A stretch of 64,000 bases of DNA from Escherichia coli (GTDB lineage Bacteria > Pseudomonadota > Gammaproteobacteria > Enterobacterales > Enterobacteriaceae). Positions 27,001 to 30,000 of the stretch are shown in pieces (the stretch's first letter is position 1; each line of letters starts with the position of its first letter). The stretch lies in the NCBI RefSeq assembly GCF_048403405.1, contig NZ_CP183129.1; one strand, 5' to 3'. Position numbers: made by a program.

Positions 27001-30000
27001 CGTATTCGTGAGACGGTGCGGCACGCACTGAATGTTCATCCCCGCCTGACGGCATTGCGGGTTGACCTGCGTTTCCCGGATGTACCGGCAGCAACGGAGG
27101 CAGCTGTGATATCCCGCTTCATCAATGCCCTGAAAGCCCGAATCGACGCTTACCAGAAACGTAAGCATCGGGAAGGTAAACGCGTGCATCCCACAACCCT
27201 GCATTACGTCTGGGCCCGGGAGTTTGGGGAGTGCAAAGGTAAAAAACACTATCACCTGATGCTGCTGGTCAACCGGGATACCTGGTGTCGTGCCGGCGAT
27301 TACCGCGCTCCGGGATCACTGGCCGGGATGATTAAACAGGCGTGGTGCAGTGCCCTGGGAGTGGATGCCGGACGTTATGACACGCTGGCACATTTTCCGG
27401 TCAGGCCGGCGGTGTGGCTGGAACGCGATGATGACACCGGCTTTCAGCAGGTGCTGGAGCGTGCTGACTATCTGGCGAAGGAGAGTACCAAAGCTTACGG
27501 CACCGGTGAGCGCAACTTTGGCTGCAGTCGTGGCTGAGCCCGACAGACGACTTATCTGACTTCAGTGTGATGACGTGTTCACAGCGACCACACTGATTTT
27601 CCCTTCTGAGACTGAACTGAAAACCGCCATTCACACCTGACCACGCTGCCCGTACCGGGACGGCTGTTGCCTGCGTGTCGTCTGGCGGTAAGGAACCACA
27701 CTATGTACGCAAAATCTTTTCTCGCACTTGATGGCAACGGACGTCTGACCGGTGCCCGTACCGCACAGACTGCTCCTTATGCCCACTACACCTGCCACCT
27801 TTGCGGCAGTGCACTCAGATACCACCCGCAGCACGACACGGAACGTCCCTGGTTTGAACACACTGACGACGGGCTGACGGAGCACGCGCAGCAATGTCCT
27901 TATGTCAGGCCGGAACGCAGAGAAATACGGTTGATTAAACGTCTGCAGCAATTCGTCCCGGATGCCTTACCCGTGGTACGTAAAGCCAGCTGGTACTGCA
28001 GGCAATGTCACCACGATTATTATGGGGAGCAGTACTGCACACACTGCCAGACCGGGCGCTTCAGTGAGGACGGGGAGCAGAATGAACGGTATAAAAACGG
28101 GGCTGGGGATCACGCCGGGTGAGCACATTATCAGTGCCGACTCTGCGCTCAGCAGAAATATCCGGCATTGTTTCTGCCTTTCCTGTCATGGCCGGTTGAT
28201 TCTGCAGACAGATGCTCAGGGGGCGTGGTTTGAGCATGATTTACATGCCCTGAGTGAGCAACAGAAGGGTAAGCGTGCAGCAAGAACCGTATTGACGGGG
28301 ATGTGTTATTCAGTCGGCAGTGCTACGCGCCAGGGGAGCAGTTCGCCGACCCGGTTTATCGGCCAGTCGGCTATGACGTCAAGGACATAGCGGAGGTAGC
28401 TTTCTGGCTCCACTCCGTTCAGTTTGCACGTCCCGATCAGGCTGTACAGCAGCGCTCCCCGCTCTCCTCCATGATCCGAACCGAAGAACAGGTAGTTTTT
28501 GCGGCCCAGACTGACCATCCGCAACGCATTTTCAGCGATGTTATTGTCCGCCTCAGCCCAGCCATCATCTGCATAGTACGTCAGCGCCGGCCACTGGTTC
28601 AGGGCGTATGCGAACGCTTTCGCCAGTTCTGAGTGTCGCGACAGGGTTTTCATCTTTTCACGCAGCCAGCTTTCCAGGGATTTCAGCAGCGGTTTCGTTT
28701 TCAACTGACGTTCGGCAAGGCGCTGCTCCGCCGTCATTCCCCTTATCTCTGCCTCGATGGCGTACAGTTCGCCGATCCGTTTCAGCGCTTCCTCCGTCAG
28801 GGCTGACGGGGTGCGAACGTGCACATCGTGGATTTTACGGCGGGCGTGAGCCCAACAGGCGGCTTCCGTTATCCGGCCATCCCGGTACAGCTCGTTGAAC
28901 CCGGCGTATGCATCCGCCTGCAGTACACCACTGAACCCCGCAAGATGGGTCTGCGGATGGATGCCTTTTCTGTCCGGGCTGTAAGCGAACCACACCGCCG
29001 GCGCCAGCGTTGACCCGGCGTTACGGTCGTCACGAACGCAGGTCCATAACCGCCCGGTCTTCGTTTTCTTATTGCCTGGCAACAGCACCGGGACAGGCGT
29101 GTCATCAGCATGGAGCTTACCGTCAGTCAGCACATAGCCATGAAGCGCCTCTTCCAGCGGAGACAGCTGCCGGCAGCATGCATCCACCCAGCCCGACAGC
29201 AGTGAACGGCTCAGCTCCACACCTTGCCGGCCGTATATTTCTGACTGGCGATACAGCGGGGTGTGCTCTGCATACTTCGAGGTCAGCACGCGGGCCAGCA
29301 GCCCCGGTCCGGCGATACCCCGCTCGATGGGCCGCGAAGGTGCAGGTGCCTGCACGATGGCATCGCACTGAGTACAGGCATGTTTTTCCCGTACCGTCCG
29401 GATAACCCGGAAGGCGCTACGCATCAACTCCAGCTGTTCGGCGATATCCTCGCCCAGATAGCTCAGTGAACCGCCGCAGTTCGGGCAGCACGGCGCCGCA
29501 GGCAACAGTCGCTTTTCGTCACGGGGTAGTGATTCAGGGAACGGCTTACGGGTGCGGGTCTGACGCAACGGACGCTGTACTGCCGGGTCATACACCCTAC
29601 CAGTCAGCGTATCGCTCTCTTTCTGAAGCCGGTTCAGATCGGCTTCCATTTGTGCGATACGGCGGGAGACTTTTTCGGAACGACTGCCGAAGTTCATCCG
29701 GCGGAGTTTATCCAGCTGCGCCTGCAGATGGTCTATTTCGCGCTCCCGGTTGCTCAGCTTTTCCTGCAGGGCGTGGATCAGCGCTTCCTGTTCGGCCAGG
29801 CGCTGTTTCAGCAGGAAAATGTCGTCAGAAGAGATGTCGTTCATACATCGTGTATTTTTCGCCGGGCATGGACCCAGCACGCAACTTCTGTCTGTGCACC
29901 ACCTTCACGTTTGGCACTGAACAGCCGATCGTAACCGCTGAATGCATCCGCCTGCAGGATACCCCGGAAGGGACGAAGGTGTTGTACCGGATGTTTTCCC

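Follow-up and report, generated by a model that had tools for sequence, protein, structure and literature searches.

What do two small, overlapping zinc-finger genes contribute to the pathogenicity island that carries them, and can they still act together in a strain in which the second gene runs into an insertion sequence? The backbone genes of the integrase/AlpA-type pathogenicity and defence islands of Enterobacterales are mostly annotated as 'hypothetical', and the locus studied here is part of such a backbone. We analysed a stretch of 64,000 nucleotides of Escherichia coli DNA (contig NZ_CP183129.1), in the following called the window. It represents a pathogenicity island of the UPEC pheV type; the identity is 100% with E. 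coli DA33137 and 99.7% with CFT073 and ATCC 25922. A preliminary description of this DNA had seen the gene pair as unusual. However, the pair is common and already annotated, with identical zinc-gene sequences in DA33137, CFT073, ATCC 25922 and hundreds of other genomes. Hence, it is a catalogued, very common island gene pair of predicted proteins, degraded in the window, and the sequence record gains nothing new from it. The features on which the argument depends are the following:

26968-27537, plus strand: Rep-like gene of the YagK/YfjJ ('inovirus Gp2') family, 189 aa when counted from the start given in RefSeq, with the reading frame open from a GTG at 26932
27703-28122, plus strand: copy 1, DUF7828 plus Zn_ribbon_11, a 139-aa reading frame with Pfam matches
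28072-28085, plus strand: gene junction with a Shine-Dalgarno-like GGGGAG (28072-28077), the deletion site and the copy 2 ATG, from alignment with relatives
28082-28268, plus strand: copy 2 remnant, first 62 codons, from the Pfam match, the alignment to intact 141-aa orthologs and the RefSeq pseudogene flag
28269-28390, plus strand: IS-encoded read-through tail of the copy 2 reading frame, 40 codons, with no homology to intact copy 2 past 28268
28269-31834, minus strand: chimera of two IS66-family elements, from annotation and with the ends read directly
28306-29844, minus strand: complete tnpC, from annotation
29844-30941, minus strand: second tnpC, truncated, from annotation
30972-31322, minus strand: tnpB, from annotation
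31319-31744, minus strand: tnpA, from annotation

We are close to certain of the identity and anatomy of the zinc-gene pair as laid out here. The two genes had been read as adjacent paralogs that each carry a CxxC...WFEH motif, and this reading stands: both reading frames and both motifs (CHLCGSALRYHPQHDTERPWFEH and CLSCHGRLILQTDAQGAWFEH, with WFEH 15-17 residues after the CxxC) are present, and BLASTP and Pfam agree. Copy 1 matches DUF7828 (PF25165) over the full model (positions 1-87, 3.8e-31), and its C-terminal C4 ribbon (WxCxxC...CxxC) matches Zn_ribbon_11 (PF11682) at 6.2e-8. The CoiA_N-like C2HC zinc domain occupies residues 2-87 and the C4 ribbon residues 94-123. Copy 2 in the window matches DUF7828 at 7.9e-16, covering only model positions 2-62 of 87. 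In BLASTP, intact copies 1 and 2 align with an E-value of 3e-11 and 27% identity over 119 aa, and since both match DUF7828 they are true paralogs and not a chance pair of motifs. The AF2 model of a copy 1 ortholog is a confident two-domain fold (pLDDT 89.6, pTM 0.80); a linker-fused copy 1-copy 2 model, calculated from a 5-sequence alignment, was unconfident, with a pLDDT of 57.6 and a pTM of 0.33.

The genes are conserved well beyond the source strain, in many Enterobacterales genera and under purifying selection. Copy-1-type proteins form 323 clusters at 90% identity and are found in Escherichia, Salmonella, Citrobacter, Klebsiella, Enterobacter, Serratia and Edwardsiella, while copy-2-type proteins of the window subtype are narrower in distribution (102 clusters). 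The dN/dS lies at 0.09-0.16 in copy 1 and at about 0.19 in copy 2 of full length, and values of about 0.1-0.2 indicate purifying selection on both genes at the level of the family. A profile search of 1.84 billion representatives gave only 253 matches at E <= 1e-3; among the 150 matches listed the longest protein has 238 aa, and none carries an extra domain of catalytic or effector size. This 238-aa protein (P0236, from a metagenomic/representative library) consists of a ribbon-less DUF7828 followed by a complete DUF7828 plus zinc ribbon. It may represent the paralogs in naturally fused form, a Rosetta-stone hint of joint action, or a gene-calling artefact. Intact proteins of the family have about 127-141 aa, and their pI of 5.2-7.1 is neutral to acidic. 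When 34 diverse members (22-59% identical to the first sequence) are aligned, C31, C34, F51, H53, W97 and C99 are invariant, and C65, C102, G108, C112, C115 and G118 are kept in at least 90% of the members. The conserved Cys/His pattern fits two zinc sites, C2HC and C4, and from these residues together with the confident predicted fold we infer that both sites bind zinc. The top AFDB matches belong to the same DUF7828/Zn_ribbon_11 family. RefSeq names the products of both genes 'putative zinc ribbon protein' or 'DUF7828 domain-containing protein', and UniProt uses 'Ybl85' or, by mis-assignment, 'DNA-directed RNA polymerase beta subunit'. NCBIfam and PHROGs gave nothing significant for either zinc protein, phage records held no homolog, and homologs occur in only 33 plasmid records. 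No relevant paper came up in the literature under DUF7828, DUF3279, Ybl85 or 'putative zinc ribbon protein'.

A relationship to CoiA had been proposed from the N-terminal motif. It holds for the N-terminal domain, but the proteins are not nuclease-related beyond it. In a profile-profile comparison (hhalign) DUF7828 and CoiA_N (PF25164) match with 94.2% probability and an E-value of 1.2e-7 over 59 columns, which cover the first strand, the CxxC, WFEH/HFAH and the next Cys; the match extends to CoiA residue 59 and does not reach the nuclease core. Streptococcal CoiA proteins have precomputed PF25165 matches beside CoiA_N and the nuclease domain PF06054. That they are genuine CoiA proteins is shown by the names they bear and by their Pfam domains (PF06054, PF25164). 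The DUF7828 HMM matches residues 1-49 of one streptococcal CoiA at 5e-5, and the CoiA_N HMM finds, weakly, 8 of the 34 family members at E <= 0.1 (best 1.3e-3). Four independent tests agree and support homology of the DUF7828 domain to the N-terminal zinc finger of CoiA (CxxC...[WY]FxH...C), with a length of about 60-75 residues. The profile comparison suggested by the preliminary description thus returned the CoiA_N match, but the PD-(D/E)xK nuclease domain PF06054 is absent from copy 1, copy 2 and all 34 relatives. That the pair are CoiA-family nucleases is rejected, since PF06054 is lacking, the proteins are too short and their C-terminal half is a zinc ribbon. The 50 kb of annotation that were read contain no competence gene.

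The overlap of the two genes had been described as a start of copy 2 at 28082, with its own Shine-Dalgarno sequence, inside the 3' end of copy 1. The ATG at 28082 and the preceding GGGGAG at 28072-28077 are in place, but the overlap of 41 nt seen in the window is not the native arrangement. In relatives it is 4 nt (ATGA) and is annotated as such in three of them (L002, which is E. coli ST131 2017_APHA, L003 and L004). When the junction is aligned with ST131, E. coli 042 and GZ2408P, one base is missing in the window lineage between 28075 and 28076 (GGGG-AGCAG versus GGGGTAGCAG). This 1-nt deletion moved the copy 1 stop to 28122 and replaced the last residues by a longer tail of 17 residues. 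The ancestral ATGA is still present in the window, out of frame for copy 1. Judged from this alignment, the 41-nt overlap is secondary and an ATGA stop/start overlap is the ancestral state. Every family-invariant residue is retained in copy 1.

Copy 2 has an open reading frame of 102 aa in the window (28082-28390, plus strand), and the earlier observation that this frame enters an IS66 end and loses its C-terminus is borne out. Homology to intact relatives stops exactly at 28268, the IS66-family end GTAAGCGTGCAGC starts at 28269, and the read-through tail (28269-28390) overlaps the tnpC of the opposite strand. The remnant lacks the ribbon entirely, as well as the helix and the fifth ligand Cys, and RefSeq flags the gene as a pseudogene without C-terminus. 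The lost 3' part was not found elsewhere in the window by blastn. Intact homologues, as had been proposed to look for, exist in other genomes as 141-aa proteins with the same two-domain layout as copy 1, including the ribbon. Of 5,426 complete E. coli genomes, 705 have the identical copy2::IS66 junction; 1,340 genomes are uninterrupted at this point.

In a simple IS66 insertion the terminal inverted repeats match and 8 bp of the target are duplicated. The element in the window has the tnpA-tnpB-tnpC gene set and the GTAAGCG terminal sequence; its ends (GTAAGCGTGCAGCAAG at 28269 and GGTCAGTTTACGCTTAC ending at 31834) differ after GTAAGCGT, no inverted repeat was detected, and an 8-bp target duplication is lacking, the flanks ACAGAAGG and CATGTATC being different. 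Thus, the IS event involved a deletion or rearrangement and was not a clean insertion. The chimera forms the border between the island backbone and the sialic-acid/aerobactin cargo, and a transposase pseudogene follows beyond it at 31890-32288. Copy 2 in the window is not the only damaged gene of this kind. In ST131 (L002, about 4681-4800, corresponding to about 27717 in the window) ISEc23, with the end ...CGCTTAC, lies inside the 5' end of copy 1, and both zinc genes of that lineage are damaged, copy 1 by ISEc23 and copy 2 by the IS66 truncation. In strain M8, copy 2 is split by ISEc38. The zinc-gene locus is an insertion-sequence hot spot. Because insertion sequences (IS66, ISEc23, ISEc38) have hit it in many lineages and the truncated state is carried by so many genomes, the pair is dispensable for the host.

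With copy 2 cut after codon 62 and the extreme C-terminus of copy 1 rewritten, the pair in the window cannot work as a pair. One may go further and regard it as a non-functional remnant in the source strain, with copy 2 dead, copy 1 drifting and no present role. The loss of one zinc ligand and the entire ribbon from copy 2, the frameshifted tail of copy 1, the ISEc23 cut in copy 1 of ST131 and the stable inheritance of the truncated state in the 705 genomes are all in line with this. However, the family-level dN/dS is low for both genes and copy 1 keeps all invariant residues, and we consider a complete loss of function rather unlikely. Such a loss would also concern the window allele only and is compatible with our main explanation for intact pairs.

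The Rep-like gene upstream of copy 1 matches YagK_YfjJ_C at 1.1e-47 and REP_ORF2-G2P at 3.7e-5 in Pfam. A gene of the YagK/YfjJ or REP_ORF2-G2P type is found within about 0.3 kb of the zinc genes in every context examined, that is in E. coli islands, Salmonella, Citrobacter, Klebsiella, Serratia and Enterobacter. It is usually located upstream, and downstream in E. coli 042; in Citrobacter the unit of Rep-like gene and zinc protein occurs twice. K-12 CP4-6 has yagK without an annotated DUF7828 neighbour. Conserved pairing of the zinc genes themselves was found in part: the tandem of type 1 and type 2 genes is present in E. coli, Salmonella, Serratia and Enterobacter, but Klebsiella has a single copy. 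Between the hha gene and the Rep-like gene lies a further small 'hypothetical protein' gene (WP_001547002.1, 26572-26769, minus strand, reading frame open to 26835). In its product, a hydrophobic C-terminal segment comes after a CxxC...CxxC zinc-ribbon motif (CRDCGNAITHNTVCCPYCG). CFT073 and ST131 have the gene in the corresponding position, ATCC 11775 has a small hypothetical gene in a similar one, and we note WP_001547002.1 as a third zinc-ribbon-type gene of the module.

The module is located in a backbone of AlpA-like HTH, Hha and GTPase genes, and the cargo that follows it varies, with sialic-acid and aerobactin genes in the window and Dpd, SNF2 or T6SS genes elsewhere. The zinc module appears to sit where a cargo/defence slot begins. 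In Citrobacter (L007-L010, 6651-12390) DpdD/PLD/DEAD-helicase (Dpd-like) and PTPS genes are located directly downstream of the zinc-ribbon genes, and in Klebsiella (L016, 4109-7387) a SNF2 helicase and an AAA ATPase gene are directly 3' of the zinc-ribbon gene. At the island edge in the window, a frameshifted toxin gene for a nucleotidyltransferase of the AbiEii/AbiGii family, together with a DUF6088 partner (1-1151, minus strand, DA33137 annotation), represents a decayed AbiE-like toxin-antitoxin/abortive-infection pair. Scans for repeats, promoters, terminators and Rfam families between 20 and 33 kb revealed nothing linked to the pair, be it iterons, an origin-like structure or an RNA element. 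An Rfam IS102 RNA (RF00124, 259.7 bits) is located upstream of the Ag43 gene (20166-20371, minus strand), an expected sRNA/leader element of the backbone.

How might intact pairs act in this setting? Each intact protein consists of a CoiA_N-like zinc domain, a short helix and a C4 ribbon (WxCxxC...GxxxCxxC) and carries no catalytic domain. The type 1 gene precedes the type 2 gene, and translational coupling via the ATGA overlap would provide stoichiometric co-expression. It seems conceivable that zinc stabilises the two proteins and that they join the island Rep-like protein, as accessory or adaptor subunits, in acting on island DNA, putatively in the recognition of an origin or DNA structure, or in the control of replication or mobilisation after excision. 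The analogy would be CoiA, in which the homologous domain precedes a D-loop nuclease domain. A Rep-accessory function is a tentative proposal that builds on genomic linkage and domain homology, and we also only infer the zinc binding, the partnership with the Rep-like protein and any role related to DNA. The pI of 5.2-7.1 counts against a classical DNA-binder. The frequent inactivation of the locus by insertion sequences and the single copy in Klebsiella also weigh against the proposal, and the fused-pair model, built on 5 sequences, offers no confident heterodimer. Taken as a whole, the explanation as a conserved backbone pair of enterobacterial tRNA-associated islands, present in the window in a decayed state, mechanism included, is the one we prefer, at somewhat less than even chances. 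A still bolder extension would be that the Rep-like protein and the coupled CoiA_N-like pair constitute an unrecognised three-gene module for replication, mobilisation or the sensing of DNA structure, common to very many enterobacterial tRNA-associated islands, and that DUF7828 is a portable recognition module, either attached to a PD-(D/E)xK nuclease as in CoiA or provided in trans to a Rep-type nickase. We judge this extension unlikely.

The partnership with the Rep-like protein could be dispensed with if DUF7828 docks on a host recombination intermediate or protein, such as RecA-coated DNA or D-loops, and modulates host recombination to the advantage of the island. The CoiA_N homology would suit such a role, since CoiA acts in RecA-dependent D-loop resolution (bioRxiv 10.1101/2024.02.06.579203), and a neutral pI is well compatible with protein-protein contacts. 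However, the literature assigns no function to the N-terminal domain of CoiA, and the strict linkage to YagK/YfjJ would be left unaccounted for, so that we regard this docking as distinctly improbable.

Similarly low is the probability that the proteins are small transcriptional or post-transcriptional regulators of island genes that work together with the AlpA-like HTH protein and Hha and have no relation to replication. The location is suggestive, as AlpA, Hha and the cargo frame the genes at the regulatory end of the island. Many transcription factors contain a zinc ribbon, and the ribbon half, when compared with the PDB, weakly resembles RPB12, eL43 and RanBP2-type fingers. All these matches are, however, non-significant (Z <= 3.3, E >= 0.078), an HTH or other known regulatory domain is absent, and the proteins are not basic.

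Finally, a two-gene defence or nucleic-acid-targeting system on a mobile element, as the preliminary description had suggested from the domain in common with the nuclease CoiA and as the defence-type cargo of these islands (the AbiE-like pseudogene at the window start, Dpd and SNF2/AAA genes in Citrobacter and Klebsiella) might invite, is not supported and very unlikely, because a nuclease or other effector domain is absent, no effector-sized fusion occurs among the 150 matches listed, PADLOC-DB gives no significant match (none for copy 1 and the Rep-like protein, one ribbon-only match at E 0.013 for intact copy 2), and the position of the genes is fixed, next to the Rep-like backbone gene, while the downstream cargo varies.

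We thus return to the backbone pair that may assist the Rep-like protein. The remaining interest of the locus is the function of this backbone module and not the copy in the window, which is ordinary, widely shared and partly degraded. Placing the zinc pair beside a Rep-like gene, with a first domain that is the module preceding the D-loop nuclease domain of CoiA, provides a testable handle on the role of the CoiA N-terminal domain and on the function of the island backbone.

Within the family defined by DUF7828 and Zn_ribbon_11 (formerly DUF3279), copy 1 is a full-length and copy 2 a truncated member; the window allele differs by the frameshifted tail of copy 1 and the IS66-cut copy 2, and not in kind. 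The inserted element is like ISEc23 (IS66 family), the element that cuts copy 1 in ST131, in sharing a GTAAGCG-type end, and differs from a typical IS66-family element in that it consists of two fused elements, with one tnpC complete and one truncated. At the level of the island, a paper on Pseudomonas tmRNA islands (10.1101/2024.08.29.610337) describes elements that carry AlpA, a Gp2-like protein and RadC and proposes that these genes supply core element functions, the Gp2-like protein being a likely one; the word zinc is absent from it. AlpA, Gp2-like and RadC backbone genes also surround the pair in CP4-44- and CP4-57-like islands and in the UPEC pheV pathogenicity island. A further comparison is that with CoiA (PF25164 plus PF06054), the PD-(D/E)xK D-loop resolution nuclease of natural transformation, with which the N-terminal domain is common. 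CoiA has about 317 aa with a nuclease and a C-terminal region, whereas the zinc proteins have about 130 aa and a C4 ribbon instead. While CoiA belongs to the competence regulon, the zinc genes are found as pairs on enterobacterial islands beside a Rep-like gene.
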